Positions 1-18,998 of a stretch of 19,703 bases of DNA are shown here, one piece after another. Position 1 is the first letter of the stretch. Each line of letters starts with the position of its first letter. The position numbers and the translations under genes are program-made. The notes under the pieces are model-generated. The model worked only from the letters and a program-made list of their open reading frames with translations, did no database searches and was not told the DNA's origin. Source of the DNA: a virus (lineage: Duplodnaviria; Heunggongvirae; Uroviricota; Caudoviricetes); IMG/VR virus record IMGVR_UViG_2778261252_000009, positions 1 through 19,703 of that record. One strand, written 5' to 3'.

Positions 1-1053
1 TTACGGGGTAATGCCAACCGCTGCCGCCACTTTGTCGCCACTTGGCAGCGTTGCCAGAGGATTGAAACGGAGCGCCGTTTCCAGATGATCTGGTGCCAGA
101 TGTGCGTAACGCATAGTCATTTTTATATCGTGGTGTCCGAGAATTTTTTGTAAGGCGAGAATGTTTCCACCCGACATCATGAAGTGCGCCGCAAATGTAT
201 GGCGCAGAACGTGTGTGAGTTGACCGCGAGGGAGCACGATAGACGTTTTTTCCATCACGGATAAAAATTGAAAATAGCAGTCTGTAAAGAAATTGAACCC
301 ATCAAGCGCCATGATCTCTTCGTAAAGCTCTTTACTGATAGGGATGCTTCTGTTTTTCTTCCCCTTCGTTCTGACAAAGGTAATTCGGTATTTGGTCACC
401 TGTGAGCGGGTAAGATTTACGGCTTCACGCCAGCGTGCGCCTGTGCTTAAGCATATCTTAACTACCAGTGCCAGAATTGGGTCCTGACGTTTGCAATCAG
501 CCAGCAATTCAACAATCTGCTCATGGGTAAGCCATGCCATCTCTTTTTCTGCGATGGTGAATTTTCGCATGTTCTCCAGTGGGTTCGGATACGACCATTC
601 GCCCAGACGGGATAGTTCGCTAAAAACACTACTTAGATAGCTTTGCTCCAGGTTAATGGTGACCGGGCTTGCTCCTTTCTTCCATTTCTCGCTGAAGTAG
701 ATCTCGCCTGTCAGGCGTTTATCTCGATAGTGGGCAAACATTTTAGAGGTGAGATCGGTTGCAAGAGGATTGCCCAGAGCGTCAACCATCAACAGCAATT
801 TGTCATAGACATGCTGCCCAGCTGTCAGAGATTTACCATGTAGTTTGAACCATAGCTCAACCACGTCTTTCAGTGTTCGACGATCCACTGATTCACCCAG
901 CCAGGGCTTTGCTTCGGTTTCTTCCATCGTGTGGCGCTCAAAAGCCAGAGCTTCGCCTTTGGTGGCGAATTGTTTACGCACCCGACGCCCACTACGTCCG
1001 GCGGGGTAACATTCGCAAAGCCATTTTCCTGTGGTGAGTTTTCGTACTGCCAT
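1..1053 (-). CDS. int: Tyrosine integrase, P2/186 family
   Basis: 350-aa ORF with ATG at 1051-1053. Contains LSTGARWREA, a catalytic Arg box, and a C-terminal HxxR...Y region (LRHTFAAHFM...GH...MTMRYAHL) typical of P2-like integrases. Confidence 0.9.
   Translation of the reverse strand: MAVRKLTTGKWLCECYPAGRSGRRVRKQFATKGEALAFERHTMEETEAKPWLGESVDRRTLKDVVELWFKLHGKSLTAGQHVYDKLLLMVDALGNPLATDLTSKMFAHYRDKRLTGEIYFSEKWKKGASPVTINLEQSYLSSVFSELSRLGEWSYPNPLENMRKFTIAEKEMAWLTHEQIVELLADCKRQDPILALVVKICLSTGARWREAVNLTRSQVTKYRITFVRTKGKKNRSIPISKELYEEIMALDGFNFFTDCYFQFLSVMEKTSIVLPRGQLTHVLRHTFAAHFMMSGGNILALQKILGHHDIKMTMRYAHLAPDHLETALRFNPLATLPSGDKVAAAVGITP
19..40. repeat. Putative attL core (left copy of direct repeat), lying inside the 3' end of int
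   Basis: 21 of 22 positions identical to 16402-16423; flanking bases diverge on both sides. Confidence 0.6.
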
Positions 1054-1078
1054 TAAAAAGCCCTCATGTCAGAGGGCT
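1054..1078 (-). terminator. Putative intrinsic terminator or attenuator hairpin immediately upstream of the int start codon
   Basis: Minus strand reads AGCCCTC-TGACAT-GAGGGCT-TTTTTA-ATG: 7-bp stem, 6-nt loop, T-run. The GAGGG that would serve as the int Shine-Dalgarno lies in the 3' stem arm. Confidence 0.45.
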
Positions 1079-1126
1079 AAATTTAACTGTATGTTTGACC
1101 AGTGGTCAATGTATGTAAATATTAAA

Positions 1127-2896
1127 TCATACGTCAGGGGTAATCCAGTCGACTAAAGCCTCAATACTTTCGAAATCTGCACAGATATCTGAAAGAGGTT
1201 GTGTATCTGCTTTTGTTTTGAAATCAGCCCATACTGATTCATTTTTTTCTGTAAGACCCAAATGGTTTTCTATCGAACCATTTAGCCAAATCCAAATATT
1301 TGCATTTCTCAGTTTTGCGGCTAATGATGACAAAAATTCTCTGGCGCCGGGCTTTTGAGACATAATAGCAAATGCTTCAGCTGCGGTAGTGTTATTACCC
1401 TTTGTAGGCAAACCGGATCCATCGAGAGTGCATTCTCCATTAGCATGCATACTTCTCAAGATTTCTTTTAGTCGTAAAATATCCTCGTCATTATGTTCTA
1501 AGAAGTTGTTCCTTATTGCACCGCGGAACGCAAAATCTAAATCAACAATTGCTTTTGTAGGTATATCCATTGAATTTAGAATTTGCATCGTTTTAGATAT
1601 ACTTTCAACGGACCCTGTTTCAATTAGTGCTATTTGCATCTGACCTAATGTTTTATTTTTAACTTTGTTAAAAATAAATGGGAGCAGAGTAGTCTCTGTT
1701 TTACCTTCTGTTAGTATTACATTGTTAGCAAACAAAACTTTTGAAGACTGTGTTAATGAAAATAAATGGGTTGCTTGTGCTGGTCGTTGTTCGATTACTT
1801 TATTGACTGCTTCTTTTAATGTTAATCTGCAATGAGTGCCACGCTGACTGTTTTTTCTGATTAACACAGTGTCTTTTGCTAAGTCAGAGGTAATCATTTG
1901 AGATGAATGGGTAGAGAAAATTATTTGATATCCATGATGAGATAGTGTTTTTAGAGATTCTCTAATTTGTTCGATAGCAAATGGGTGAAGATATAACTCA
2001 GGTTCATCTATTAACAGTAGAGTAGTTGTTTTAATATCATCACCGTTGGTTATATCAGCTAAATGTCTTATTAGAGCCATCTGAATCGAACGCTGTGTGC
2101 CATGACCATAAGAAGAACAGTCACGAGCAATGCCGGGAAATGAATCTTCATATACTTTCACAGTCCCTGATTTAAATATATCCTTGAAGTCAGGGAGTTC
2201 GAAGTGTAGTTTTAAACTTATCCCAGGGAAGAAATCAGCAACTTTACTACTTATTGAATCATCAATATCATTGAGGTCCGATATTCGTTTATTACCGGTT
2301 GCAGTCATTCTTCTATTAACGGCATTTAAATGGCTTAGTATCCTTTGAGTGTGCTTCTCTTCTATTTTGCAACTCAATTCTGCCAGCAACTTACCTATTG
2401 TAGTTCCTGTTTTTGATTTTGAAGAATCATCCGCTGCATTTTCCATTGCACCTATACGTATTGGGTCTGGAAATAAAGCTTTTATCGCATTCTCAATACC
2501 CGTTGGTGATGTCCTGAATTCGTTATTTTCTGGGTTTTTAATTAATAATCTGACGTCTTTTGCACTTTGAGCACCAACAGGCTGTTGACGCTTAAATATC
2601 AATACCCCATCAATAATGTAGGGTGAAATTCTAGTTCTGTTTTCTTCTGTTAAAGCTGACAAAATATCTTCAGTAATACCCTTAACTGTACCTATAACTT
2701 CTATAGGGTTATCTGGATTAGTATAATCATCAGAGGACAAAAGTTTTTTCTTAAAAAGCCATTCAATAGCATTTAAAATCGTTGACTTACCAGCATTGTT
2801 GTAACCGATTAAAGGCGTGAATGAAGAAAAATTGATATCAATATCTTTGCAAGATCTAAAGTTTTTTATAGAAATCTTTGAAAGATGATGATTCAT
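1127..2896 (-). CDS. OLD-family ATP-dependent nuclease (N-terminal ABC-type ATPase, C-terminal Toprim); candidate anti-phage defense protein
   Basis: 589 aa. Walker A GYNNAGKST near N-terminus, Walker B LLLIDEPELYLHP, H-loop FSTHS. Toprim-like VILTEGKTE and DxD motif AIVDLDFA. Strong RBS GGAGGAG 6 nt upstream of ATG. Visibly AT-rich relative to neighbours. Confidence 0.8.
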   Translation of the reverse strand: MNHHLSKISIKNFRSCKDIDINFSSFTPLIGYNNAGKSTILNAIEWLFKKKLLSSDDYTNPDNPIEVIGTVKGITEDILSALTEENRTRISPYIIDGVLIFKRQQPVGAQSAKDVRLLIKNPENNEFRTSPTGIENAIKALFPDPIRIGAMENAADDSSKSKTGTTIGKLLAELSCKIEEKHTQRILSHLNAVNRRMTATGNKRISDLNDIDDSISSKVADFFPGISLKLHFELPDFKDIFKSGTVKVYEDSFPGIARDCSSYGHGTQRSIQMALIRHLADITNGDDIKTTTLLLIDEPELYLHPFAIEQIRESLKTLSHHGYQIIFSTHSSQMITSDLAKDTVLIRKNSQRGTHCRLTLKEAVNKVIEQRPAQATHLFSLTQSSKVLFANNVILTEGKTETTLLPFIFNKVKNKTLGQMQIALIETGSVESISKTMQILNSMDIPTKAIVDLDFAFRGAIRNNFLEHNDEDILRLKEILRSMHANGECTLDGSGLPTKGNNTTAAEAFAIMSQKPGAREFLSSLAAKLRNANIWIWLNGSIENHLGLTEKNESVWADFKTKADTQPLSDICADFESIEALVDWITPDV

Positions 2897-2939
2897 TTTA
2901 GACTCCTCCAGTAAGTATTTAAAAGTAATGTCTGCAATG

Positions 2940-3878
2940 TTATTGTATTGTTAAGATAATGCTGGCTATAATTTGAATATCCTCAATGGAACACTCAAAA
3001 TCCTTACTCCCACCAGAAACAAGAATTTTGTTCTTAGGTAAGCGAGTTAACTCTTTTAAAGATAACTCATTGTCAATTCCTACTAACCATTTTCCATCTC
3101 TAATTAGGTGAAATTCTTTATCACATATGACATGTTTTTCTCCATTGCTTACAAACATCAAGCTGCTAGTTTCTTGCTTCGGAAGTAGACACCGATCCAT
3201 GGATAAAAAACCTGACTCGACAAGCACGCCATTGACCAAATTGAACTTATTTAAAATTACAGTGTTTTCTTCTTGTGAACTATTTGGTGTTTCGATTCCT
3301 GTAACTAGCCAGGCGAGATCCGCTTTGGTTTCTAATGCGCATTTAATCACCCAATCCGCAGGGAAAGAATCTCGCATGTATCGTGTGGCTAATGTGCTTT
3401 TTGAAATACCAAGGTGGTCGGCTAAGGCTTGGCGGGTTTTAAACCCGTAAGCATTAACAATCCTCTCTATCGTGGCTTTTCCTCCGTTAGTAAGCTCAAT
3501 GTGATTCTCAATGCGGCGCTTAAAGGATGATTGATGAGCGTTGCTGTTAAACCCCTCATGTGGGACTGTTTCATCATGTTGTTCCACATAAGGGGGGAAA
3601 CTTTCTTCTGCATTGTTAGAACCAAAGGCCAGCCATTCTAGGGATGCGCCAGTTTCCATTGAACATATAACAACCCAATCAGCAGGGAAGGTATCGCGTG
3701 CATATCTATTAGCCATTGTGCTTTGTGAAATACCAAGATGCTTACAGAAGGCTTGGCGTGATTTGAAACCATAGGCCTTGAGTATCCTCTCAATGACTTT
3801 TTGCCCTCCACGATTCTGCATGACCATAGCTTTCAGACTATCTTCAATATGGCGAAATGTGATTTTTTGAGTTGACAT
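2940..3878 (-). CDS. cI: CI-like prophage repressor with tandemly duplicated N-terminal HTH domain
   Basis: 312 aa. Two copies of a ~62-aa motif (residues 25-86 and 133-194, IERI..AYGFK.RQA...HLGIS.ST.A.RY.RD.FPADWV..C..ET.A.L.WL..G), about 39 of 62 identical by hand alignment. Sits divergent from apl-cII in the 186 cI position. Confidence 0.7.
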   Translation of the reverse strand: MSTQKITFRHIEDSLKAMVMQNRGGQKVIERILKAYGFKSRQAFCKHLGISQSTMANRYARDTFPADWVVICSMETGASLEWLAFGSNNAEESFPPYVEQHDETVPHEGFNSNAHQSSFKRRIENHIELTNGGKATIERIVNAYGFKTRQALADHLGISKSTLATRYMRDSFPADWVIKCALETKADLAWLVTGIETPNSSQEENTVILNKFNLVNGVLVESGFLSMDRCLLPKQETSSLMFVSNGEKHVICDKEFHLIRDGKWLVGIDNELSLKELTRLPKNKILVSGGSKDFECSIEDIQIIASIILTIQ

Positions 3879-3965
3879 ATTCTTTATGTGAACCTATTCT
3901 CCGTTTTGTGATGTTTTGTCACGATTAATACCGGCTCACCACAAGCCAATAGGAGATGTTGCATC

Positions 3966-4187
3966 ATGACCCCTAACATTTCAATAACTCTGAATACGCC
4001 ACACGTCACAATTGAGCGTTATAGCGAACTTACTGGTCTTTCTATCGACACCATCAACGATATGCTGGCAGATGGTCGTATCCCTCGCCATCGCCTTCGG
4101 AAAGACAAGAAAAGAGAAAAGGTAATGATCAACCTTGCTGCTCTTACCGTTGATGCACTTACTGATTGCAATGTTGTATTCAACTAG
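3966..4187 (+). CDS. apl: Apl/Cox-like small HTH excisionase and regulator
   Basis: 73-aa ORF, first gene rightward of the switch region, RBS AGGAGA upstream; position equivalent to 186 apl. Confidence 0.55.
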
Positions 4188-4219
4188 TTCCATTTTGGGA
4201 TGTATCAGGAGTGTCGACT

Positions 4220-4729
4220 ATGTTTGATTACCAAGTTTCCAAACATCCACATTTTGATGAAGCCTGTCGTGCATTTGCATTGCGCCACAACTTGGTGCAA
4301 CTGGCAGAACGTGCAGGTATGAATGTGCAGATTCTGCGGAACAAGCTGAATCCAGCTCAACCTCATTTATTAACCGCACCAGAAATCTGGCTGCTTACCG
4401 ATCTGACTGAAGATTCAACGTTGGTAGATGGTTTTCTGGCACAGATTCACTGCCTGCCATGCGTACCAATTAATGAGGTGGCAAAAGAGAAACTGCCACA
4501 TTACGTCATGAGTGCAACCGCAGAGATCGGGCGTGTTGCTGCAGGTGCGGTATCTGGCGATGTAAAAACCAGTGCAGGTCGTCGTGATGCTATCAGCAGC
4601 ATTAACTCTGTAACACGACTGATGGCGTTGGCTGCTGTTTCATTGCAGGCCCGTTTACAGGCTAACCCTGCGATGGCGAGTGCAGTTGATACCGTGACTG
4701 GCCTCGGTGCTTCATTCGGTTTGCTGTGA
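4220..4729 (+). CDS. cII: CII-like transcriptional activator, phage 186 type
   Basis: 169 aa from ATG at 4220 with RBS AGGAGTG. N-terminus [19 protein letters not shown] matches my recollection of 186 CII, which is also 169 aa. Confidence 0.8.
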
Positions 4730-4736
4730 GGTGCTT

Positions 4737-5033
4737 ATGCTGACGAAAGAACCATCATTTGCATCGCTGCTGGTAAAACAAAGCCCGGCAATGCACTACG
4801 GTCACGGCTGGATCACAGGTGAGGATGGAAAACGCTGGCATCCATGTCATTCACAAGATGAATTGCTGTCTGAATTGACCACGAGGAAACGGAGAAAGTC
4901 CAAATGTATGCGGCAGAAAGTGAAGTGGTTTATCAGTTTCGTTACAGAGGGGAGAGTTATTCAGTACCTGAAGATGATTTGCTCTGTTGCTATCCGTCAT
5001 TGTCGGGCGATGGCAGTTACTTTTTCGCGTTAA
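4737..5033 (+). CDS. Hypothetical early protein, translationally coupled to cII
   Basis: ATG at 4737 with GAGG 5 nt upstream, 8 nt after the cII stop. Overlaps the next ORF by ~130 nt in another frame, so the true 3' end is uncertain. Confidence 0.4.
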   Translation: MLTKEPSFASLLVKQSPAMHYGHGWITGEDGKRWHPCHSQDELLSELTTRKRRKSKCMRQKVKWFISFVTEGRVIQYLKMICSVAIRHCRAMAVTFSR

Positions 5034-5128
5034 AGGATGGGACGTTTTTACGGGGAGAGCAGGTTAAAGAGACGATACGAAAAAATGTATCTCCTCTTGA
5101 GCGTTACCGTAAGAACAAAGAACGATAG
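4904..5128 (+). CDS. Hypothetical early protein
   Basis: 74-aa ORF with good RBS GGAGAAAG 5 nt upstream of ATG. Confidence 0.5.
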   Translation: MYAAESEVVYQFRYRGESYSVPEDDLLCCYPSLSGDGSYFFALKDGTFLRGEQVKETIRKNVSPLERYRKNKER

Positions 5129-5150
5129 CTGCGTTTGGGGGATATGAAGT

Positions 5151-5492
5151 ATGGCAATTAATGGCGCTGCAGCAACTGTTCCATTAAGCCCCGGTGAACG
5201 CCTGAATGGACTTAATCACATTGCGGAGTTAAGGGCGAAAGTTTTTGGCCTGAATATTGAGTCAGAGCTTGAGCGGTTTATTAAAGATATGCGTGATCCA
5301 CGGGATATCAATAATGAACAAAATAAACGGGCACTGGCTGCCATATTCTTTATGGCAAAAATTCCAGCTGAACGTCATAGCATCAGCATTAATGAGCTGA
5401 CCACTGACGAAAAGCGGGAGCTGATTAAAGCAATGAATCATTTTCGTGCAGTGGTGAGCTTATTTCCCAGACGGCTAACCATGCCGAATTAA
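5151..5492 (+). CDS. Hypothetical early-region protein
   Basis: 113-aa ORF, RBS GGGGGA upstream, same strand as the early operon. Confidence 0.5.
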   Translation: MAINGAAATVPLSPGERLNGLNHIAELRAKVFGLNIESELERFIKDMRDPRDINNEQNKRALAAIFFMAKIPAERHSISINELTTDEKRELIKAMNHFRAVVSLFPRRLTMPN

Positions 5493-5559
5493 CCAACTAA
5501 TGAAATTAATGGCGTAAACCCGCCGGGCATCCCTTTATCTAAATTCAGGAGAATTGATT

Positions 5560-5793
5560 ATGCGTAATATTGAAACCCTCACGACTAAAACCGGACCGGA
5601 TGACGCAGGGCTTAATATTTTACTGACAGAGGCTCGTCTGGAAGAACGCCGGGCAAGGGCTGAAGCAATGGCAGCTCGCCTTGATAGCCTGGCGTGTCAT
5701 ATCTCATCCCGTCAGCTAAACCACGTGGAAGCGGCAGAACTGCTGCGTGTGACTGCTGAAGCAATCCAGAACGAAGCGCAGGAGATCCACTAA
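5560..5793 (+). CDS. Hypothetical early-region protein
   Basis: ATG at 5560 with AGGAGA 7 nt upstream; its stop TAA overlaps the next ATG (TAATG). Confidence 0.5.
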   Translation: MRNIETLTTKTGPDDAGLNILLTEARLEERRARAEAMAARLDSLACHISSRQLNHVEAAELLRVTAEAIQNEAQEIH

Positions 5794-6020
5794 TGGCTGA
5801 TGCAATGGATCTCGTACAGCAGCGCGTTGAAGAAGAACGCCAGCGCCATATCCGTGCTGCCCGTGCCAAAACGCCGGGCGTGTCCCGCGTGCTTTGCGTT
5901 GAGTGTGAAGCGCCAATTCCGCCAGCACGCCGCCGTGCCATTCCGGGTGTGCAGCTTTGCATTACCTGTCAGGAAATCGCAGAGCTGAAAAGCAAACATT
6001 ACAACGGGGGTGCTGTATGA
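5793..6020 (+). CDS. TraR/DksA-type C4 zinc-finger protein
   Basis: 75 aa with CVECEAPIP...CITCQ (CxxC-N17-CxxC); P2-like phages carry such a gene upstream of A. Confidence 0.7.
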   Translation: MADAMDLVQQRVEEERQRHIRAARAKTPGVSRVLCVECEAPIPPARRRAIPGVQLCITCQEIAELKSKHYNGGAV

Positions 6021-6874
6021 GCACCATCCTGAAATGGGCGGGAAATAAAACCGCCGTAATGTCCGAACTGAAAAAACATCTTCCTGCTGGTCCGCGACTA
6101 GTTGAACCTTTCGCGGGTTCCTGTGCTGTGATGATGGAGACGGATTATCCCTGCTATCTGGTTGCGGATATTAATCCTGATTTAATCAACCTCTATAAAA
6201 AGGTTGCCGCTGATTGTGAATCGTTTATATCTCGCGCCAAAGTTTTATTTGAGATCGCAAACAGGGAGGTGGCTTATTACAACATAAGGCAGGAGTTTAA
6301 TTACTCAACTGAAATTACTGATTTCATGAAAGCGGTATATTTCCTGTATCTCAATCGTCACGGTTACCGTGGGTTATGTCGCTATAACAAGAGCGGGCAT
6401 TTCAACATTCCCTACGGTAATTATAAAAATCCGTATTTCCCTGAAAAAGAAATTCGCGCTTTTGCAGAAAAAGCCCAGCGAGCAACGTTTATCTGCGCCA
6501 GCTTTGATGAAACGCTGGCGATGTTGAAGGCGGGGGATGTGGTGTATTGCGATCCGCCTTATGACGGTACGTTTTCCGGCTATCACGCTGACGGCTTTAC
6601 TGAAGATGACCAGTATCACCTGGCATCCGTTCTTGAACATCGGTCATCAGAAGGACATCCGGTCATTGTTTCTAACAGTGACACATCCCTGATCCGTTCG
6701 CTGTATCGCAATTTTACTCACCACTATATCAAGGTAAAACGCAGCATCGGCGCAGCAGCTGGTGAGAGTAAATCAGCAACAGAAATCATTGCTGTTTCCG
6801 GGCCGCGCTGCTGGGTGGGATTTGATTATTCGCGTGGCGTGGATAGTTCTGCCGTGTACGGAGTACGTGCATGA
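6017..6874 (+). CDS. dam: DNA adenine methyltransferase, Dam family, with no adjacent restriction gene
   Basis: 285 aa. N-terminal LKWAGNK and FAGS motifs (AdoMet binding), catalytic DPPY ([10 protein letters not shown]), [15 protein letters not shown] similar to E. coli Dam. Start overlaps upstream stop (ATGA) and stop overlaps A start (ATGA). Confidence 0.9.
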
Positions 6875-9285
6875 GCCATGCCGATATGAGCAACTGCTGC
6901 GGCTTTAACGAGGCTGCCGCATCGTTCTCATGGAACAGCCCGAAAAAGGCCATTAACCCTTATCTGGACCCGGCGGAAGTTGCGCCGGTTTCTGCGCTTT
7001 CAAACCTGATCACTCTGTACGCTGCCGATAACGAGCAGGAACAACTGCGCCGCGAGGCACTGAGTGATCAGGTCTGGGAGCGTTATTTCTTTAATGAATC
7101 CCGTGATCCTGTCCAACGCGAAATAGAGCAGGATAAGCTCATTAGCCGGGCAAAGTTGGCGCATGAGCAGCAGCGTTTTAACCCGGACATGGTCATTCTG
7201 GCAGACGTCAGCGCCCAGCCCTCCCATATCAGCAAGCCGCTGATGCAACGTATTGAATACTTCAGCAGCCTGGGCAGGCCAAAGGCTTATTCCCGCTATT
7301 TACGTGAGACGATTAAGCCATGTCTGGAACGACTGGAGCATGTACGCGACAGCCAGCTATCTGCATCTTTTCGTTTTATGGCAAGCCATGTAGGGCTGGA
7401 CGGCCTGCTGATTCTGCCTGAAATGAGTCAGGATCAGGTGAAACGCCTGTCTACCCTTGTCGCTGCGCATATGAGCATGTGCCTTGATGCAGCTTGTGGT
7501 GATTTGTATGCCACCGATGACGTTAAGCCAGAAGAAATCCGCAAGACATGGGAAAAGGTGGCAGCGGAAACCCTGCGTCTGGATGTCATCCCGCCTGCGT
7601 TTGAGCAACTCCGTCGGAAAAGAAACCGCCGTAAACCCGTGCCCTATGAACTCATTCCGGGTTCGCTGGCGCGTATGTTGTGCGCCGACTGGTGGTACCG
7701 GAAATTATGGAAAATGCGTTGCGAATGGCGGGAAGAGCAGTTGCGTGCTGTCTGCCTGGTCAGCAAAAAAGCATCTCCCTATGTCAGCTATGAAGCCGTG
7801 ATGCATAAACGTGAGCAGCGCCGCAAGTCACTGGAGTTTTTCCGTTCTCATGAACTGGTGAACGAAGAGGGCGACACGCTGGATATGGAAGACGTGGTAA
7901 ACGCCAGCAGCAGCAACCCGGCGCACCGCCGCAATGAGATGATGGCCTGTGTTAAAGGTCTGGAGCTTATCGCGGAAATGCGCGGTGACTGCGCCGTTTT
8001 CTACACCATTACCTGTCCGTCACGTTTCCATTCCACGCTCAATAACGGCAGACCAAACCCAACCTGGACAAATGCGACGGTAAGACAAAGCAGCGATTAT
8101 CTGGTCGGCATGTTTGCTGCATTTCGTAAGGCGATGCACAAAGCCGGGTTGCGCTGGTATGGCGTGCGGGTGGCTGAGCCGCATCATGACGGTACAGTTC
8201 ACTGGCACCTGTTGTGTTTCATGCGCAAAAAAGACCGCCGCGCCATTACTGCATTGTTGCGTAAGTTTGCCATCCGTGAAGACCGCGAGGAACTGGGTAA
8301 TAACACTGGTCCACGCTTTAAATCTGAGCTGATAAACCCGCGCAAAGGAACGCCGACAAGCTACATCGCGAAATACATCAGTAAGAACATTGACGGGCGT
8401 GGTCTGGCTGGCGAGATCAGCAAGGAAACGGGTAAATCCCTGCGTGATAACGCTGAATACGTTAATGCCTGGGCGTCTCTGCATCGTGTTCAGCAATTCC
8501 GCTTCTTTGGTATTCCGGGACGTCAGGCTTACCGTGAACTTCGCTTGCTGGCTGGTCAGGCGGCAAGGCAACAGGGTGACAAAAAAGCAGGTGCGCCGGT
8601 ACTGGATAACCCGCGTCTTGATGCCATTCTGGCTGCTGCTGATGCTGGTTGTTTTGCCACCTACATCATGAAGCAGGGCGGCGTACTGGTTCCCCGCAAA
8701 TATCACCTCATCAGAACCGCTTATGAAATCAACGAAGAGCCAACCGCCTATGGCGATCACGGTATTCGTATTTATGGCATCTGGTCACCCATTGCAGAGG
8801 GCAAGATCTGCACTCATGCAGTGAAGTGGAAAATGGTTCGTAAGGCCGTTGACGTTCAGGAGGCGGCAGCCGACCAGGGCGCTTGCGCCCCTTGGACTCG
8901 TGGCAATAACTGTCCCCTTGCTGAAAATTTGAACCAACAAGGGAAAGACAAATCAGCTGATGGGGATACCAGAACGGATATCACCCGCATGGATGACAAG
9001 GAGTTGCACGATTACCTGCACAGAATGAGCAAAAAAGAGCGCCGGGAACTGGCAGAAAGATTACGCCTGGTTAAACCGAAACGGCGTAAAGACTACAAAC
9101 AGCGAATTACAGAGTATCAGCGTCAGCAGCTCGTCTATGAGCTGAAGTCCAGAGGATTTGATGGTAGCGAGAAAGAGGTCGATTTACTCCTTCGCGGCGG
9201 CAGTATTCCGTCAGGAGCAGGCCTGCGTATCTTCTATCGGAACCAGCGTTTGCAGGAAGATGATAAGTGGCGGGATCTGTATTAA
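6871..9285 (+). CDS. A: Rolling-circle replication initiation endonuclease, P2 gene A family
   Basis: 804 aa. HUH motif HWH at codons 444-446 (8200-8208) and paired catalytic tyrosines YIAKY at codons 498-502 (8362-8376), as in the phiX174 A / P2 A superfamily. Confidence 0.85.
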
Positions 9286-9377
9286 TTACGCGGGTTAACA
9301 ATTCGTGCTCTTAATAATACCAGGCATATCAGGCTGATGAACGTAAAAAAACGTTTTACATCAGTAAGATTATTATA

Positions 9378-9397
9378 TACTGTAAATATAAACAGTG
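9378..9397 (+). promoter_or_regulatory. LexA (SOS) box upstream of the tum/dinI-like module
   Basis: TACTGTAAATATAAACAGTG matches the CTGT-N8-ACAG consensus exactly (CTGT 9380-9383, ACAG 9392-9395), about 40 bp upstream of the ORF starting at 9438. Confidence 0.65.
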
Positions 9398-9437
9398 GTT
9401 ATGTATACAGTATTGCTTTGGTGTCATAGGAGGAAAG

Positions 9438-9626
9438 ATGCAGGACTATTTTTTGGAGTCTTTGAAGCTCCAGCGCATTGATTTTTTTCTTAAGCTTGTA
9501 GCGGCTAGTGAGTGTAGTGATGAAGAGAAGGGGCTGGCTCTGCAGTGGGTTTCTGAACTGACAGATGAACTCATGGCAAAAATCAGAACCCACGAATACA
9601 ACCGCTCAATGGATGTCATCAGCTGA
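9438..9626 (+). CDS. Small protein downstream of LexA box; possible Tum-like antirepressor component
   Basis: 62-aa ORF with RBS AGGAGG; function inferred from position only. Confidence 0.4.
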   Translation: MQDYFLESLKLQRIDFFLKLVAASECSDEEKGLALQWVSELTDELMAKIRTHEYNRSMDVIS

Positions 9627-9636
9627 GGTGACTTTT

Positions 9637-9870
9637 ATGCGCATTGAAATAATGATCGATAAAGAGCAGAAGATTAGCCAGTCTACACTGGACGCCCTTG
9701 AATCCGAGCTTTACCGCAATCTGCGCCCCCTGTATCCCAAAACGGTAATTCGTATCCGCAAAGGTAGCTCTAACGGTGTGGAACTGACCGGACTGCAACT
9801 GGACGAAGAAAGAAAACAAGTGATGAAAATTATGCAGAAGGTGTGGGAAGACGACAGCTGGCTGCATTAA
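9637..9870 (+). CDS. DinI-family protein
   Basis: 77 aa starting MRIEIMIDKEQ...LDALESELYRNLRPLYP...KIMQKVWEDDSW, resembling E. coli DinI (MRIEVTIAK...). RBS GAGG 8 nt upstream. Confidence 0.7.
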   Translation: MRIEIMIDKEQKISQSTLDALESELYRNLRPLYPKTVIRIRKGSSNGVELTGLQLDEERKQVMKIMQKVWEDDSWLH

Positions 9871-10073
9871 GAAACGTTGCTGGCGTCTGAACTTGCTTCT
9901 GGCGTCAGCAAGGTTGAACAACGAGCTGTGCGAGGCGTTAGCTCTGTGGTGCATGTCTATGCCGCATGAGATCGCATGATCGTTTGAGGATTGTTTTTGC
10001 TAAGGCCTGCCAGAACTGGCGGGCTTTTGCGTAGATCATGCAGGTGCATGAAAACCACTACATAAAGCGGGCA

Positions 10074-10099
10074 GGCGTGGCGGGGATACGAGCGCGCAC
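10074..10099. other. cos-like remnant (possible degenerate cohesive-end site)
   Basis: GGCGTGGCGGGGA matches the first 13 nt of the 186/P2 19-nt cohesive end as I recall it (GGCG[T/A]GGCGGGGAAAGCA[T/C]); the remaining 6 nt differ. Lies in a GC-rich non-coding stretch between the dinI-like gene and the cargo gene. Confidence 0.4.
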
Positions 10100-10218
10100 T
10101 TAAGGATAAATTGAAGTTGATTTAATTTTTCGACATGGATAATCTTAACTACGTATGATTATTGATAAAAAATAAACATAAAAAATTGTAGCGGATCTTA
10201 AAACTTATTAGGATTAGT

Positions 10219-11280
10219 ATGCTTAAAACAAATAAGGTATTTATTGACACACAAACGTACGTAAAGGCTGGTCTTCATTTTGAGGGGGTAGCATTTAAAG
10301 CTTTCCATGAATTATGTGCGAAAGGTGATTTAGTCTTAATTACAACTACAGTTGTAGAGAGAGAAGTAAAAGGTAAAATAGAGGAATCAATAAAGGATGC
10401 TCTGCAGGCTATAAACACAGTACAAAGAAAAGCTAGGCTTTTGAATAGTATTGATAATGGACCGCTCCATGGTTTTTTTCAGCAATTTAACGAACATGAA
10501 ATTCACGAAGCAGCACAAAAAGTTTTTGATGATTTTTTGAAAGGATGTCACGCCAAATTAGCTACAATAGAAGTGATAGATCTTAATGAGGTTTTAGATA
10601 AATACTTTGGCAAAGAACCACCATTTGGGCAAAATAAGAAAAAAAGTGAGTTTCCTGATGCAATCACTTTAGCTGCGGTAGAGCGATTTGTTAATGATGA
10701 AGATGTGTATATCATTTCTGAGGATAGTGACTTAAAAAATTATTGTGATGGTAAAAACAATCTTCATCAAATTGATTCACTTGATAAGTTTCTAGGTGAA
10801 TACAATACGCATACAAACGAATTAAGTAATAAATTGATGCAGTTTATCGAAAGCAAACGTGAAGACATAAGAGCGGACGTAATTGCCCAACTCAATGATG
10901 CCGATGGATATAACGTTTCAACTTGGGAAGACGCTGAATTGGATTCATTTGAAGTCGTCAATATTGATGACTTTGAACCATCAATAATTAAGATTAGCAA
11001 TAATTATTGTCTAGCGACCTTCTCTGTTTCTGTAGATTTTGAAGTTACTGTTTCTGGTCCAGACTTTAATAATGGGTATTGGGATAGCGAAGATAAAGTA
11101 ATGATTCCAATGGAGACAACCACACGAACTGAAGTTCAAGAGATTAGTTTCGATGTTGAAATTGAAGTTATGTATGAAATCGAGGATGGTGAATTAACAG
11201 ATATCGCATTTGATGTGAATATTGATAAGTTATCCCGAGGGATTGAGTTCTCTATTGAAGAAAATAATTTTGAATATTAA
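10219..11280 (+). CDS. Cargo protein with PIN-like N-terminal domain and acidic beta-rich C-terminal domain; candidate anti-phage or abortive-infection effector
   Basis: 353 aa. N-terminus KVFIDTQTY (Asp in first strand), later TLAAVERFVNDEDVYIISEDSDL resembling distal PIN acidic motifs. C-terminal half very D/E rich. Visibly AT-rich, flanked by an AT-rich upstream region and a hairpin terminator. Confidence 0.55.
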   Translation: MLKTNKVFIDTQTYVKAGLHFEGVAFKAFHELCAKGDLVLITTTVVEREVKGKIEESIKDALQAINTVQRKARLLNSIDNGPLHGFFQQFNEHEIHEAAQKVFDDFLKGCHAKLATIEVIDLNEVLDKYFGKEPPFGQNKKKSEFPDAITLAAVERFVNDEDVYIISEDSDLKNYCDGKNNLHQIDSLDKFLGEYNTHTNELSNKLMQFIESKREDIRADVIAQLNDADGYNVSTWEDAELDSFEVVNIDDFEPSIIKISNNYCLATFSVSVDFEVTVSGPDFNNGYWDSEDKVMIPMETTTRTEVQEISFDVEIEVMYEIEDGELTDIAFDVNIDKLSRGIEFSIEENNFEY

Positions 11281-11289
11281 TTCGTTCAT

Positions 11290-11320
11290 AACGGCATCAT
11301 TGTGATGCCGTTGGGTTTTA
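11290..11320 (+). terminator. Hairpin terminator between the convergent cargo gene and Q
   Basis: AACGGCATCA-TTG-TGATGCCGTT (10-bp perfect stem, 3-nt loop) followed by GGGTTTTA. Confidence 0.6.
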
Positions 11321-12343
11321 TAATGTATATATTTCAAAATTTATAATTTCATGACCAAGCCATCTGTTTATTTCCATGAATCTTTTTTGAAGTGGTAATA
11401 GTTCATTTCTTACGAAGACGCAGCTCGCCTTCTCCACATCACCAAAACCCCCAACATTATTCGGCAAAATTCCCATCATCTGAGGCGGTACGCGGTGTGC
11501 CGCCATCATGTCATCACGGCTGACGTTCTTGATGTTCAGAAATTCATCCTTCGCCGCGACTTCTGACAACGGGATGATTTGAAGCCCGTCCTTTTTGCCG
11601 TTAGGCGAGTACATAAACAGGTTGCGGAAGTTGCCAGGGCCTTTGGCGCTTTTCATCGCATTGCGGAGGTTGTTCACATCCTCCTGGTTCTGCGCGGCAT
11701 CGGTCATGTACATGATGAAGCCTGCATGGCTGCCGTTAATGTAATACTTCCGGCGGAACAGCGTGGCGGACTCGTTGAGCAGGGCTGACGGAATGGCAGA
11801 AAGATAACCTGGTAGGCCGTAGATCTCCTGGTTGATGTCAGGTTCCATCAGATGAAAAATGCTGCCTTTCGTGAACTGATACGGCTGGGTTGTCATACCG
11901 TATTGCACAAACCAGTAGGTATCCAGATCTAACCCGCGTCGGGTGTATTTTGCCAGAGCAGGCTCAAGGGCGATAACTTCACCGAAGCGGTTCGTGCGTT
12001 TCTCCAGGTAGGCGTTACCAAATACCAGATAGTCCTGCACAAAACGTGAAAAAGCCTGCTGGCTGAGCAGCGGGTGAGGGATGTAGGTACTGGTCAGAAT
12101 GTTGCATTTCACCGCAATTGGTGAGCTGTGATGCACGGCGGCGCGGAAGGTTCGTGCCAGTCCGTCAAAGCTGACGGGCGGCTCATACCAGCGATCCATC
12201 TGTACGCATTCCACATAGTCCAGCAGTTCACGGCGGTCCAGAACAGGAACGGGATCGCCAAAGCTGAATGCTTCGGCTGAAGTTTGGCTTTTATGCTTGA
12301 GCTGATTCGTCGCCGCAGCGCGGTTTTTCTTACTCTTTCCCAT
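11318..12343 (-). CDS. Q: Portal protein, P2 gpQ family
   Basis: About 341 aa (P2 Q is ~344 aa by my recollection); ATG at 12341-12343 overlaps the stop of the upstream terminase fragment; gene order P then Q as in P2. Confidence 0.85.
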   Translation of the reverse strand: MGKSKKNRAAATNQLKHKSQTSAEAFSFGDPVPVLDRRELLDYVECVQMDRWYEPPVSFDGLARTFRAAVHHSSPIAVKCNILTSTYIPHPLLSQQAFSRFVQDYLVFGNAYLEKRTNRFGEVIALEPALAKYTRRGLDLDTYWFVQYGMTTQPYQFTKGSIFHLMEPDINQEIYGLPGYLSAIPSALLNESATLFRRKYYINGSHAGFIMYMTDAAQNQEDVNNLRNAMKSAKGPGNFRNLFMYSPNGKKDGLQIIPLSEVAAKDEFLNIKNVSRDDMMAAHRVPPQMMGILPNNVGGFGDVEKASCVFVRNELLPLQKRFMEINRWLGHEIINFEIYTL

Positions 12344-13323
12344 CAAAAAATCTCCACAATATTGCTGGTATTGGCGGACTCGCCCTGCAGCGGTTCATTA
12401 AACAGTGCGTGCATTGTTGCCCAGGCCAGATCGGCGTGGCTGGCTTCTTCGCTGCGGCTGGCTTCATAGGTCGGGCGGTTGCCACTGGCGGTGGTGGCGC
12501 GACGGATTGCCATAAATGACTGCGCTATGTCGGTGTGTCCGGCGTCAAACTCCAGACGGCGGTGGCTGATAATGTCGTAGGCCTTGAGTACCAGGGCGTT
12601 TTTGACGTTGGGGTTGTAGACAAACTCCCGGACGGCAGGAAAAAACACTTTCACGTTCTCGTAAACCCCGTGACCAACGCCGGTTGAGTCGATGCCGATA
12701 TAGGTCACGTTGTACTGTTCGGTCAGTTTTTTGATGGCGTCAGCCTGGGCGCGAAAGTCCATCCCGCGCCACTGGTGACGCTCAAGAATGCGGAACTTGC
12801 CGCCCGGCACGGCTGGCGGTGCCACCACCACGCATCCGGCACTGTCGCCGTTCTGCGTACCTTTCGCCGGGTCATAACCGATCCACACTTCGCGCCAGCC
12901 AAACGGGCGCAGTGCCAGTGCATGAAAGTCGGTCCAGACTTCCCAGCTGTCCACCATGCACGCCTGCAGCTCGCTGAGCGGGAACACGGACGCGAGATCG
13001 TCCACGAACTCGCACATCAGCAGGTTCTGGTATTCGTCCGGGCTGTACTCCATGCGCAACTGGTCAAGGTCGAACAGGTTGCAGCCGCCGCGCACCGCAT
13101 CTTCCACGGTGACTATCTGGCGGTATTGCCCGTCTGCGCACAGCAGGCCGGGGGCCAGATTGCTGTGGGACAGGTCGATGTCCACCTTATCGGCTTTGTT
13201 GCGCCCACGGTTGAACAGCGCACCGGACCAGAACGGATACGGCAGCAGTAACTCGAACCAGCAACGCGTTGTCCTGGCTGGCTGGTGCACCACTGGCACT
13301 GCTGCGACGCGGGCTTGCTTCAT
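12343..13323 (-). pseudogene. P: Terminase large subunit (P2 gpP family), N-terminally truncated; only distal ATPase region plus nuclease domain retained
   Basis: 326-aa ORF with no Walker A; contains the RNase-H-like nuclease motif VWIGYDPAKG...D. P2 P is ~590 aa by my recollection. The ORF's 5' end overlaps the tape-measure fragment on the opposite strand. Confidence 0.75.
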
Positions 13324-14513
13324 CGGGCAATGCTGCGGGTTTACTTACTGCGCCGTTGTCGTCTTTGCGCCGCACGGCATCACTGACGGGAAATGTCCTG
13401 AAAACTGTAGCAGGTGCGCCGGTTGCACTTTTGCGGTCTGGATTATCCGGTTTACGTGCTGTTGCTGTGATGTTTATGAATCCTCTGGCGGTACTGCGCG
13501 GTGGACTGACCGCCGCAGGCACGGTGTTGCGAGTACTGGCATCTGGTCCACTGGCGATGCTGCGCGTTGCCCTGTATGCCATATCTGGTCTGTTAGGTGC
13601 TCTGCTCAGTCCGATAGGTCTTGTGGTTACTGCACTGGCAGGCGTGGCGCTGGTTGTCTGGAAATACTGGCAACCCATCACCGCATTTCTCGATGGCGTG
13701 GTGGAGGGATTCAAAGCGGCGGCAGGTCCCATCAGTGCTGCATTTGAACCACTTAAGCCTGTGTTTCAGTGGATTGGCGACAAAGTACAGGCGCTGTGGG
13801 GCTGGTTTACTGATCTGCTGACGCCCGTTAAGTCGACCTCTGCCGAACTGCAGAGCGCAGCGGCAATGGGGCGACGATTCGGGGAGGCACTGGCGGAAGG
13901 GCTGAATATGGTTATGCATCCGCTGGACTCCCTGAAATCTGGCGTTTCCTGGTTGCTGGATAAACTCGGCATTGTCAGTAAAGAGGCTGCAAAGGCGAAA
14001 CTGCCGGAAAGCGTGACGCGTCAGCAACCTGCGACGGTGAATGCAGACGGTAAAGTGATGATGCCATCGGGTGGTTTTCCATCATGGGGATATGGCTTTG
14101 CGGGGATGTATGACAGCGGCGGCTATATCCCGCGCGGGCAGTTTGGCATCGTCGGTGAAAACGGGCCGGAAATTGTTAACGGCCCGGCAAACGTGACCAG
14201 CCGGAGAAATACAGCTGCACTGGCTGCCGTTGTTGCCGGAATGATGGGCGTTGCTGCCGCGCCTGCAGAGCTTCCACCGTTGCATCCTTTGGCACTTCCC
14301 GCGAAAGGCGGCGAAGCGATGGTGAGTCGTGCAGCCACTGTGCCGCCCGTTCAACGGATTGAGGCACCGACGCAGATCATCATTCAGACGCAGCCAGGAC
14401 AAAGTGCGCAGGATATTGCGTGGGAGGTGGCCCGCCAGCTTGATGAACGTGAACGCAGGCTGAAGGCAAAAGCCAGGAGTAACTACAGCGATCAGGGGGG
14501 ATACGACGCATGA
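13269..14513 (+). pseudogene. T: Tail tape measure protein (P2 gpT family), C-terminal fragment
   Basis: 414-aa ORF, Ala/Leu/Gly-rich with GENGPEIV near the C-terminus, followed by U and D as in P2 (T is ~815 aa in P2 by my recollection). The 5' boundary of genuine T sequence is uncertain. Confidence 0.7.
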
Positions 14514-14995
14514 TGATGGTGCTGGGATTGTACGTGTTTATGCTGCGCACCGTGCCGTATCAGGAACTGCAGTATCAACGCAGCTGGCGACATGCGGCTA
14601 ACAGCCGGGTAAATCGTCGTCCGTCCACGCAGTTTCTGGGACCGGACAACGACATGCTGACGCTTTCCGGTGTTCTTATGCCGGAGATAACAGGCGGCAG
14701 GCTGTCGTTGCTGGCACTTGAGCAGATGGCAGAACAGGGGAAAGCATGGCCCCTGATTGAAGGCAGCGGCACGATTTACGGCATGTATGTGATTGAGGGA
14801 CTGAATCAGACTAAAACGGAGTTTTTCCGCGACGGTATGCCGCGCCGGATTGAGTTCACCCTGTCGCTCAAACGAGTGGATGAATCCCTGTCCGATATGT
14901 TCGGTGATCTCAGTGCGCAACTGAATAATCTGCAGGAAACGGCAACATCTGCTTTAAGCGATATCAGTAAAACGGTGGGAGGGCTGCTGTCGTGA
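14510..14995 (+). CDS. U: Tail protein, P2 gpU family
   Basis: 161 aa; start overlaps T stop (ATGA); synteny T-U-D. Confidence 0.8.
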   Translation: MMMVLGLYVFMLRTVPYQELQYQRSWRHAANSRVNRRPSTQFLGPDNDMLTLSGVLMPEITGGRLSLLALEQMAEQGKAWPLIEGSGTIYGMYVIEGLNQTKTEFFRDGMPRRIEFTLSLKRVDESLSDMFGDLSAQLNNLQETATSALSDISKTVGGLLS

Positions 14996-16092
14996 ATTTC
15001 AGCTCTGAGCTGCTTAACAAGGGCAACAAAACTCCCGCATTCAGCATCAGTATTGAGGGCAGGGATATCACTACTGTCCTGGATAATCGCCTGATGAGTC
15101 TGACGTTGACGGACAATAGGGGCTTTGAAGCGGACCAGCTTGATCTGGAGCTGGACGACGCCGACGGAAAAATCGTGCTGCCGCGCCGTGGTGCGGTCAT
15201 TACGCTGGCGCTGGGCTGGAAGGGGCAGCCGCTTTTCCCGAAAGGGGCATTCACGGTGGACGAGATTGAACACACTGGCGCACCGGACCGCCTGACTATC
15301 CGGGCGCGAAGTGCTGATTTTCGGGAAACGCTGAATACCCGCCGTGAAAAATCGTGGCATAAGACCACCGTCGGGGAAGTGGTGAAGGAAATAGCTGCGC
15401 GTCACAAACTGAAGATGGCACTGGGTAAAGACCTGTCGGATAAACCCGTGGATCATATAGACCAGACTAATGAGAGTGACGGCAGTTTTCTGATGCGGCT
15501 GGCGCGACAGTACGGTGCCATCGCGTCGGTGAAAAATGGCAATCTGTTATTCATCCGGCAGGGGCAGGGCAAAAGCGCCACTGGTAAACCACTGCCGGTG
15601 ATCACTATCACACGGAAGGACGGCGACAGTCACCGCTTTACCCTGGCAGATCGCGGAGCTTACACGGGCGTCATTGCCAGCTGGTTGCATACCCGCGAAC
15701 CCGCGAAGAAAGAAAGCACCACGGTGAAGCGTAAGCGCAGGACTAAGAAGCAGAAGAAAGAGCCGGAAGCGAAGCAGGGCGATTACCTGGTGGGTACGGA
15801 TGAAAACGTGCTGGTACTTAATCGCACTTATGCCAACCGGAGCAACGCCGAACGGGCAGCGAAAATGCAGTGGGAACGCCTGCAACGCGGCGTTGCATCA
15901 TTCTCGCTACAACTGGCGGAAGGGCGGGCAGATCTCTACACAGAAATGCCTGTGAAGGTCAGTGGCTTTAAACAGCCGATAGATGATGCGGAATGGACCA
16001 TTACGACTCTGACGCATACCGTCAGCCCGGATAACGGTTTTACGACCAGTCTGGAGCTTGAAGTGAGGATTGATGATTTCGAAATGGAATGA
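14992..16092 (+). CDS. D: Tail protein, P2 gpD family
   Basis: 366 aa, GTG start overlapping U stop (GTGA), RBS GGGAGGG; last gene of the tail operon before ogr. Confidence 0.8.
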   Translation: MNFSSELLNKGNKTPAFSISIEGRDITTVLDNRLMSLTLTDNRGFEADQLDLELDDADGKIVLPRRGAVITLALGWKGQPLFPKGAFTVDEIEHTGAPDRLTIRARSADFRETLNTRREKSWHKTTVGEVVKEIAARHKLKMALGKDLSDKPVDHIDQTNESDGSFLMRLARQYGAIASVKNGNLLFIRQGQGKSATGKPLPVITITRKDGDSHRFTLADRGAYTGVIASWLHTREPAKKESTTVKRKRRTKKQKKEPEAKQGDYLVGTDENVLVLNRTYANRSNAERAAKMQWERLQRGVASFSLQLAEGRADLYTEMPVKVSGFKQPIDDAEWTITTLTHTVSPDNGFTTSLELEVRIDDFEME

Positions 16093-16182
16093 TTCTTCGC
16101 AATGGAGAACTTTTAAGTTTGCAAAATGGAATAATGCGGTATCATTATTGTGAATTTAGCAAAAATGGGGAGAACTCGAAAA

Positions 16183-16401
16183 ATGATGATTTGCCCACTG
16201 TGTGGAAGTGCCGCCCATACTCGCAGCAGTTTTCAGGTATCTTCATTGACCAAAGAGCGTTACAACCAGTGCCAGAACATTAACTGCAGCCATACTTTTG
16301 TTACCCATGAAACTTTTGTTCGTTCGATTGCAACGCCAAAAGAGTCAAATCCGGTTCAGCCGCATCCAATGAAATCAGGACAGGTGGCGCTCTCTCTTTG
16401 A
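16183..16401 (+). CDS. ogr: Ogr/Delta-type zinc-finger late-gene activator
   Basis: 72 aa from ATG 16183 with CPLCGSAAH...CQNINCSHTF, matching the P2 Ogr pattern CPLC...H...C..NC and its 72-aa length. Confidence 0.8.
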   Translation: MMICPLCGSAAHTRSSFQVSSLTKERYNQCQNINCSHTFVTHETFVRSIATPKESNPVQPHPMKSGQVALSL

Positions 16402-16423
16402 CGCTGCCGCCATTTTGTCGCCA
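16402..16423. repeat. Putative attR core (right copy of direct repeat), immediately after the ogr stop
   Basis: CGCTGCCGCCATTTTGTCGCCA, 21 of 22 identical to 19-40. Confidence 0.6.
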
Positions 16424-16481
16424 TCGTTAAAAAACAGTGTTTCTAACATCATGATTTTAAACAGCTTAAATTTCAGGCAAC

Positions 16482-16524
16482 AAAAAACCCATCAACCTTG
16501 AACCGAAATGGCGGGGTTGATGGG
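16482..16524 (-). terminator. Intrinsic terminator of ybjL
   Basis: CCCATCAACC (16488-16497) pairs with GGTTGATGGG (16515-16524) around a 17-nt loop; on the minus strand the hairpin is followed by TTTTTT. Confidence 0.7.
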
Positions 16525-16636
16525 CTCCACAAAATGGGGACATCAAAGAAAAGCAGTGGCACTAATTAAGACTGATGCCCTGCGGAAAAGTTCTGCGGTT
16601 GTGCAAAAAAATTTCATTTTCAGGGCAACTTCAGTT

Positions 16637-18992: not shown

Positions 18993-18998
18993 AGACGA

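Follow-up and report, generated by a model that had tools for sequence, protein, structure and literature searches.

A 186-type CI repressor with two N-terminal helix-turn-helix domains in P2-like prophages of Enterobacterales

The open reading frame (ORF) at positions 2940-3878, on the minus strand of a 19,703-nucleotide stretch of viral DNA (positions 1 to 19,703 of IMG/VR record IMGVR_UViG_2778261252_000009, hereafter the window), encodes from an ATG start a 312-residue CI repressor built of an N-terminal tail, a helix-turn-helix (HTH) domain (D1), a predicted disordered linker, a second HTH domain (D2) and a CI C-terminal domain (CTD). It is the presence of two N-terminal DNA-binding domains (NTDs) per chain, where one is expected of a 186-type CI, that makes this protein a variant. 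The doubled CI is a real and common variant of a known repressor family without a published description that we could find: the literature on PF07022, on tandem or two-HTH repressors and on CI duplication in P2-like phages yielded no account of the layout, and longer linkers and CTDs are all that is mentioned in a 2011 survey of the regulatory genes of P2-like phages. On balance, we favour the view that the gene encodes the immunity repressor that maintains a 186-type P2-like prophage (Peduoviridae), a repressor in which an extra HTH domain drawn from another NTD lineage precedes a complete 186-type CI and, by way of a flexible linker of about 40 residues, would permit multivalent reading of the operators.

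Domain structure and origin of the doubled repressor

A first-pass annotation made from the sequence alone had described residues 25-86 and 133-194 as two copies of one domain of about 62 residues, and its count of 39 identities in 62 proved exact; the two segments are homologous, a local self-alignment of the protein scoring 225 against 26 ± 4 (maximum 44) in 500 shuffles. The accompanying repeat at the DNA level (3627-3806 and 3303-3482, offset by 324 bp) was also recovered, with 118 of 180 nucleotides identical (66%), and a repeat finder independently returned a direct repeat of the same 324-bp spacing at 3402-3470 and 3726-3794 (74% identity). The assignment of both copies to the CI-type HTH family, followed by a single CI CTD, agrees with the Pfam profiles: PF07022 (Phage_CI_repr) matches twice (whole-protein E 3.8e-58), and PF16452 (Phage_CI_C, E 1.4e-22) covers residues 210-308. 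The statement that a 186-type CI has one such domain was likewise correct, since 186 CI (PDB 2FJR, residues 10-182) aligns solely with residues 136-308 of the window's protein, that is, with one HTH domain and the CTD, so that the canonical CI has a single NTD.

Domain envelopes of residues 23-88 and 131-196 were obtained with a custom-built hidden Markov model. The N-terminal tail (residues 1-22, MSTQKITFRH...; 3813-3878, minus strand, as are all segments of the gene) is kept in doubled CIs and in single-domain CIs with a D1-type NTD, and contains a predicted helix at residues 13-20; the D1-type single CIs of loci L130-L133 start MSN(I/N)(N/K)IT(I)RH. D1 (residues 23-88; 3615-3812) has the recognition helix SQSTMANRYAR and belongs to an NTD lineage, here called P0069-like, that also occurs alone in CIs of about 208 residues. 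The linker and the tail that precedes D2 (residues 89-130; 3489-3614) are predicted to be disordered and are little conserved. D2 (residues 131-196; 3291-3488), with the recognition helix SKSTLATRYMR, aligns with the NTD of 186 CI, and the C-terminal, oligomerisation domain (residues 210-308; 2955-3251) matches PF16452.

An AlphaFold2 monomer model, computed from a 41-sequence alignment of doubled CIs, consists of three separate folded units: two HTH domains of five helices each, D1 bearing the additional N-terminal helix 13-20, and a beta-rich CTD with a predicted local distance difference test score (pLDDT) of about 90 (89-96 across residues 210-308). Residues 90-126 have a pLDDT below 50 and the predicted template modelling score of the whole is 0.42. 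The best Foldseek matches are 2FJR (E 1e-16), the lambda-186 hybrid 7JVT and the 186 CTD 2FKD, chain A of which superposes on the CTD with a template modelling score of 0.89 and a root-mean-square deviation of 1.2 Å. In the model, D1 and D2 thus resemble beads on a string, and the packed pseudo-dimer of DNA-binding domains envisaged earlier finds no support, either in the predicted structure or in the linker, which is only 13% conserved.

Nor does the suggested internal tandem duplication fit the relationships of the two domains. D1 and D2 are old copies, as 20 of the 39 residues that they share use different codons. D1 domains are nearest to other D1 domains, while D2 domains fall among the NTDs of single-domain CIs, and a bipartition separating the D1 domains of the main group of doubled CIs (type I) and the P0069-like NTDs from all D2 domains, the other single NTDs and the other first domains was recovered in 291 of 300 neighbour-joining bootstrap replicates (97%). 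Single-domain versions, the existence of which in related prophages had been left as a question, occur for both types of NTD. The identity of D1 with the P0069 NTD reaches 86%, and the recognition helix of D1 is that of the P0069-like CIs, in which D1 is the sole DNA-binding domain. D2 is 82% identical to the NTD of the 185-residue single CIs P0033 and P0036, again with an identical recognition helix, and over D2 and the CTD together these proteins are 69-72% identical to the window's CI. Sequence comparison therefore assigns D1 and D2 to two NTD lineages, rather than to a duplication within this gene, and identifies D2 plus the CTD as an ordinary 186-type CI. The junction is still legible in other doubled CIs, whose pre-D2 tail, K-x-P-x-E-x-x-I-N-x-N-Q-G-G, is the N-terminus of the P0070-like single CIs (MSTSKYPNEIKINPNQGG).

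At least three further types of first domain (MDLRRGGKAAIDRIM..., MDLTKGGRGAIERMV... and MNFKNGGQAVITRML...) exist, from which it follows that the doubled layout arose repeatedly; together with the recurrence of distant tandem-HTH CIs, they argue for selection of the layout. In a set of 30 type-I doubled CIs, D1 averages 82% pairwise identity, D2 78%, the linker 13% and the CTD 36%, which makes D1 at least as constrained as D2, and both recognition helices are nearly invariant (D1 GISQSTMANRYARDTFPADW; D2 SKSTLA(N/T)RY(M/L)RD). Family-wide, the NTDs are conserved and the CTDs diverge, the reverse of the usual expectation for immunity specificity. At locus L103 (2360-3516), the stop codon of a 198-residue ORF with two CI-type HTH domains and a CTD stub shares the sequence ATGA with the start of a complete single cI; three HTH domains are thereby placed in succession, possibly as an intermediate stage of domain accretion.

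The switch region and candidate operators

The cI gene heads a leftward lysogenic operon and diverges from apl-cII. It lies upstream of int, from which one cargo gene (old) separates it. A candidate early lytic promoter, pR, was identified at 3872-3900 (plus strand) by a promoter scan as a sigma-70-like element matching at 10 of 12 positions, with a -35 TTGACA at 3872-3877 overlying cI codons 1-3 (the first codons of the N-terminal tail), a 17-bp spacer and a -10 TATTCT at 3895-3900. Its position relative to the cI start is that of the annotated pR of phage 186 and is conserved in 25 distinct doubled-cI intergenic regions.

Three candidate half-sites lie in and beside this promoter. S1 (3883-3893, minus strand; GGTTCACATAAAG in the sense of cI) lies in the pR spacer, is homologous to GGATCACAAAACG of the D1-type single CIs and has a core that matches the TTCAC half-site of 186 FL/FR. 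S2 (3903-3911, minus strand; aTCACAAAAC in the cI sense, ATCACAAAAC) is located just downstream of the -10, 20 bp from S1, and its TCACA is invariant across all doubled-cI regions. S3 (3913-3922, plus strand), which reads GTCAC on the plus strand and GTGAC in the cI sense, is inverted with respect to S2 and lies 10 bp beyond it, a spacing that differs by up to 2 bp among relatives. In all, five TCAC/GTGA cores, those of S1 to S3 among them, fall within 111 bp around pR, a density reached by 0.3% of equal-sized intervals; a search for TCACAAAAC with at most one mismatch revealed no enrichment over the whole window (7 observed, 6.7 expected), so that significance attaches only to the local clustering of GTGA/TCAC.

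The FL and FR operators of 186 are annotated as TTCAC-N5-GTGAA, a palindrome that we call A-type, and its central pR site as TCTCTCAATTGGGAGA. An A-type palindrome is present upstream of 13 of the 14 closest single-domain (P0033-like) cI genes (TTCACTTGGAGTGAC at -16) and absent from the upstream regions of doubled cI genes, none of the 34 of type I and none of the 9 others (0/43) having one; the prediction that the doubled layout would come with a changed operator geometry is thereby borne out. At the window's own pR, we found no A-type palindrome even when the spacing was relaxed (TTCAC-N3-12-GTGAA, at most one mismatch), no TTCAC-N5-GTGAA or TCTCAATTGGGAGA palindrome and no core of the second, B-type, operator (CCCAANTGGG, CTCAATTGGG). 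In the window this search matched only a hybrid within apl (GCTCAATTGTGAC) and a weak site in linker-coding DNA (CCCACATGAG). 

Two further features of the surrounding DNA deserve mention. At 4004-4016 (apl codons 13-17), GTCACAATTGAGC joins an A-type half-site (GTCAC) to a B-type half (CAATTGAG); it is situated some 40 bp inside apl, at the place of pL and of weak CI binding in 186, and is conserved, but in conserved coding sequence. In the linker-coding DNA, about 300 bp from pR, an inverted repeat at 3552-3595 has 15-nt arms that are complementary at 13 of 15 positions (87%) around a 14-nt spacer; by our rough estimate, chance alone would yield about 0.07 such repeats (spacer up to 50 nt) in 1.4 kb, and this one is possibly a distal operator or an RNA hairpin.

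The regulatory region is a mosaic that parallels the build of the protein. The cI-proximal 40 bp, spanning S2, the -10 and S1, are identical at about 36 of 40 positions between doubled-CI phages and D1-type single-CI phages, the latter having three direct TTCACAA repeats, and the apl-proximal half is common to the P0070-like single-CI phages, which carry a B-type palindrome (AAGTCCCCAAATGGGAAC). D1 and a promoter/operator cassette thus travel together, and this is the chief reason for proposing that D1 reads S1 and S2. 

The P0070-like single cI genes (L126, L110, L104, L008) have AAGT(A/C)CCCAA(A/T)TG(A/G)G(A/G)(A/T)C at both -42 and +17 from the cI start, the second copy lying inside the KYPNEI codons. 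In many doubled cI genes a B-type-like site persists in the corresponding pre-D2 coding DNA, at +302 to +371 from the start codon, a perfect AAGTCCCCAATTGGGAAC being present in L078. By analogy, this position is reminiscent of FL in 186, and the core of the site, TCTCAATTGGG, is shared with the central pR operator of that phage. Asn/Ile and Glu/Gly changes in the encoded peptide track the palindrome, which suggests selection at the level of the DNA. In the window's allele the pre-D2 site is not present, and no clear equivalent of FL or FR was found there.

Proposed mode of action and competing explanations

The doubled layout probably changes how the repressor reads its operators. Judging from its similarity in fold to the 186 domain, the CTD would dimerise and oligomerise as in 186 CI, and dimerisation would bring together four DNA-binding-competent HTH domains, two from each chain. 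D1 would read the promoter-proximal half-sites of the TCACAAA type, S1 and S2, that bracket the pR -10, because D1 and the 40-bp promoter/operator segment are co-inherited and both match the CIs in which D1 is the sole NTD. D2, which has the recognition helix of an ordinary single-domain CI and is under equally strong selection, most likely adds contacts; its targets could be the inverted GTGAC at a distance of 10-12 bp from S2, distal sites comparable to FL and FR of 186, or both. Given that the window's allele lacks the pre-D2 B-type-like site, S3, distal sites or the operators of other phages all come into consideration as what D2 may contact. The operators would then be arrays of single half-sites read by tethered domains, and not TTCAC-N5-GTGAA palindromes read by a rigid pair of NTDs.

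Known systems offer partial parallels to such a protein. Coliphage 186 CI (2FJR, full length; 2FKD, the CTD 14-mer) belongs to the same two Pfam families, is encoded at a locus opposite apl-cII and upstream of int, aligns end to end with D2 and the CTD, uses half-sites of the TTCAC type and is associated with a LexA-controlled Tum/DinI-type operon; unlike it, the window's CI adds an N-terminal HTH domain of another lineage, the disordered linker of about 40 residues and the 22-residue N-terminal tail. The single-domain 186-type CIs (D1-type P0069-like; D2-type P0033/P0036-like and P0070-like; and those of the Fels-2, Cartapus and RE2010 class) share with it their recognition helices, the halves of the intergenic region and a 62-residue ORF described below, but have one NTD each, where the window's chain combines both lineages. 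Engineered single-chain 434 repressors and the POU domains of eukaryotes place tandem HTH domains in one polypeptide. Wmk of prophage WO also has two HTH domains (PMC12889037). In these proteins, as in ours, two HTH modules are joined by a flexible linker, with the consequence that half-site orientation and spacing need not be palindromic. The window's CI bears no sequence relation to them beyond the HTH fold, and its tandem unit is attached to an oligomerising CTD, which would raise the valency to at least four per complex. The C repressor of P2, an immunity repressor of a P2-like phage, binds operators that are direct, non-palindromic repeats (PMC2995052); it is an unrelated, single-domain protein of about 99 residues without PF07022 or PF16452, from a different type of switch.

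Several points weigh against the interpretation that we favour. All operator assignments rest on analogy, and the conservation of S1 to S3 is not independent evidence, since the type-I intergenic regions can be aligned throughout, as expected from common descent. S3 may be no operator at all, in that S3 and the apl-proximal half also occur in the P0070-like single-CI phages, and the fourth base of S1 varies (TCA/G/TCA). No clear D2-type operator was found for the window's allele: A-type palindromes are absent within 1 kb, as is any B-type CCCAANTGGG site. The doubled CI is not always the sole repressor of its switch, as it is encoded by a second gene behind a normal cI in prophages of the E2348/69 type. 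Lastly, the window's CTD is 33% identical to that of 186 and may or may not still assemble into a 14-mer wheel.

Some of these points would be accommodated if the protein were instead a bivalent, dual-immunity repressor, a reading to which we accord a minor though appreciable chance. A foreign NTD would have been captured together with its promoter/operator cassette, and a single chain would silence two heteroimmune groups of 186-type phages, D1 controlling the resident pR and D2 binding the operators of heteroimmune single-domain phages, or the reverse, thereby conferring superinfection immunity against two immunity groups; in some prophages the doubled CI might be purely anti-phage cargo. 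Both NTD types are the sole NTD of CIs in circulation, the P0033-like CIs, which have TTCACTTGGAGTGAC as their operator, possess the very recognition helix of D2, and the window's own switch has no evident D2-type operator. The bivalent reading would also fit the tandem cI genes of E2348/69 (L185, NC_011601 855128-856671) and of L061, L154, L156 and L159, in which the order is apl, a normal 189-residue cI with an A-type operator, a 307-residue doubled cI, a KAP-family NTPase gene and int. Here the doubled cI lies behind a normal one in the variable cargo slot between cI and int, and it behaves like cargo itself, in keeping with the idea that it might act in trans on other phages. This tandem arrangement is a minority, represented by one allele group among 48 distinct upstream regions; the case for bivalence is purely inferential, D1 might sterically hinder D2, and the B-type-like site that many doubled cI genes keep in their pre-D2 DNA would be usable by their own switch. 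If bivalence were nonetheless to hold, repeated independent fusions, as represented by at least four first-domain types and the three-HTH arrangement of L103, would constitute a general route to wider or switched immunity in temperate phages, with the old specificity kept.

It is improbable, in our estimation, that D1 does not read DNA here and serves as a regulatory domain or a decoy, for instance by buffering the SOS antirepressor, with a higher induction threshold as the result, or by altering oligomerisation. The 62-residue protein of the SOS operon is 98-100% identical in single-CI (Fels-2, Cartapus, RE2010) and doubled-CI (4LV2017) phages and so may target a conserved surface of the NTD, and throughout the family NTDs are far more conserved than CTDs. 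Against a decoy role stand the identity of the D1 recognition helix with that of CIs in which D1 is the only DNA-binding domain and the matching promoter/operator segment that travels with D1; moreover, the 62-residue protein is a candidate antirepressor only and lacks similarity to the N-terminal half of Tum.

The remaining proposals, that the protein serves specifically to regulate the neighbouring OLD nuclease, as the first-pass annotation had offered as an alternative, or a decaying, functionless fusion, are very unlikely: although cI and old are adjacent and co-oriented and a 99%-identical cI copy (L052, IMGVR_UViG_2516143027_000010) has been cut to 237 residues, presumably by a frameshift, implying that some doubled copies are decaying, the gene holds the canonical position of cI opposite apl, its layout is under purifying selection in at least 45 clusters and present in the sequenced phage record 4LV2017, and in relatives the doubled cI is followed by at least 10 unrelated genes or directly by int (L139), OLD being found behind it solely in the window's allele group. 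It is because the downstream cargo thus differs between relatives that we regard the protein as an immunity repressor, and not as a partner of OLD.

The interest of the doubled CI extends beyond this prophage. For 186 CI, as for few other repressors, the switch has been modelled in quantitative detail (seven-dimer wheel, DNA wrapping, FL/FR looping), and the doubled CI, as a natural and common variant, tests how far that model depends on a rigid pair of NTDs reading palindromes. It also exemplifies immunity evolving by the accretion of a domain with its cognate operator, rather than by point mutation.

Distribution and genomic context

The HTH-HTH-CTD layout was found in 45 clusters (90% identity) among the 120 best homologues, from E. 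coli, Salmonella, Klebsiella, Citrobacter, Enterobacter, Kosakonia, Edwardsiella and other Enterobacterales. In complete E. coli genomes, a blastn match contiguous across D1, linker and D2 was obtained in about 252 of 5426, the doubled CIs of CFT073 and E2348/69 being checked individually; the window's own cI allele is present in 14 of the complete genomes. The layout is in use in functional phages: Klebsiella phage 4LV2017 (Peduoviridae, Elveevirus) encodes a 313-residue doubled CI at the same locus that is annotated just as 'repressor protein CI', and the RefSeq label in E. coli prophages identical to the window's is 'phage repressor protein CI'. As annotation pipelines label doubled CIs simply 'CI', about 5% of complete E. 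coli genomes will be misassigned when immunity group or prophage cross-immunity is predicted from CI similarity. The occurrence of doubled CIs in CFT073, E2348/69 and the sequenced phage 4LV2017 makes them easy to study. In the CFT073 prophage (L186), Apl and CII are identical to those of the window (same WP accessions) and the pR region is conserved; its cI DNA matches that of the window solely across D1, linker and D2 (68.7% identity), with no match across the CTD.

In a library of representatives at 50% identity, the whole CI family is small, with 251 matches, and about a dozen of the top 150 are 285-358 residues long; the five of this size that were read (P0124, P0136, P0225, P0240 and P0251) are all HTH-HTH-CTD proteins. 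One protein of the library has three HTH repeats. P0219 (1034 residues, eight matched stretches) was considered as an eight-HTH protein and rejected as a false positive, being a ubiquitin-like repeat protein. A scan of species-representative genomes gave two doubled CIs in 48 loci, viral-contig and E. coli collections being far richer. No NCBIfam or PADLOC model matched the doubled CI.

The start of the window is the left end of a P2/186-like prophage, and an identical prophage adjoins rcdA in E. coli strain D5. int (1-1053, minus strand) is followed by a gene for a full-length P2-Old-type ATPase/TOPRIM nuclease (1127-2896, minus strand; PADLOC Old, E 9e-235) that separates it from cI. Divergently from cI are encoded an Apl/Cox-like excisionase-repressor (3966-4187, plus strand; phrog_575, E 1e-31) and a 186-type CII activator (4220-4729, plus strand; PF06892, E 3e-42), and then Fil, DUF5347 and DUF2732 proteins, a TraR/DksA-like protein, Dam and replication protein A. 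This order, int, cargo, cI, divergent apl, cII, and fil to A, is the layout of the phage 186 switch as annotated in NC_001317. Other genes found after doubled cI genes encode a 349-residue protein (in 4LV2017), predicted membrane or coiled-coil proteins and a KAP NTPase, and in 186-like prophages of E. coli the gap between cI and int acts as a hotspot for variable cargo or defence genes. The same slot has been described as a defence hotspot in P2-like phages of Vibrio (PMC9122126).

Downstream of gene A, in the position of p95/LexA in 186, a LexA box, CTGT-N8-ACAG (CTGTAAATATAAACAG; 9380-9395, plus strand), precedes an SOS operon comprising the 62-residue ORF and candidate antirepressor (9438-9626, plus strand; phrog_698) and a gene for a DinI-like protein (9637-9870, plus strand; PF06183) that shares 41% identity (E 3e-24) with the C-terminal half of 186 Tum. 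Phage 186 has the antirepressor and the DinI-like part joined in one protein, Tum; in the window a separate gene encodes the DinI-like protein. Being the same in single- and doubled-CI phages, the 62-residue ORF does not discriminate between CI types by its co-occurrence. The CI protein had no match to Peptidase S24 (PF00717) at E ≤ 0.1, and its CTD resembles those of LexA and lambda CI only distantly in fold, with 9-18% identity. The presence of a LexA box and a homologue of the DinI-like, C-terminal part of Tum, combined with the absence of a Peptidase_S24 signature from CI, makes induction by an antirepressor likely by analogy with 186, and it would presumably proceed through the LexA-controlled operon at 9380-9870, rather than by self-cleavage of the repressor. 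Between this operon and the portal gene, the window also encodes a 353-residue PIN_12-domain protein (10219-11280, plus strand), which had no PADLOC match; the site of its gene is the gpA-gpQ hotspot, where P2 carries old/tin.

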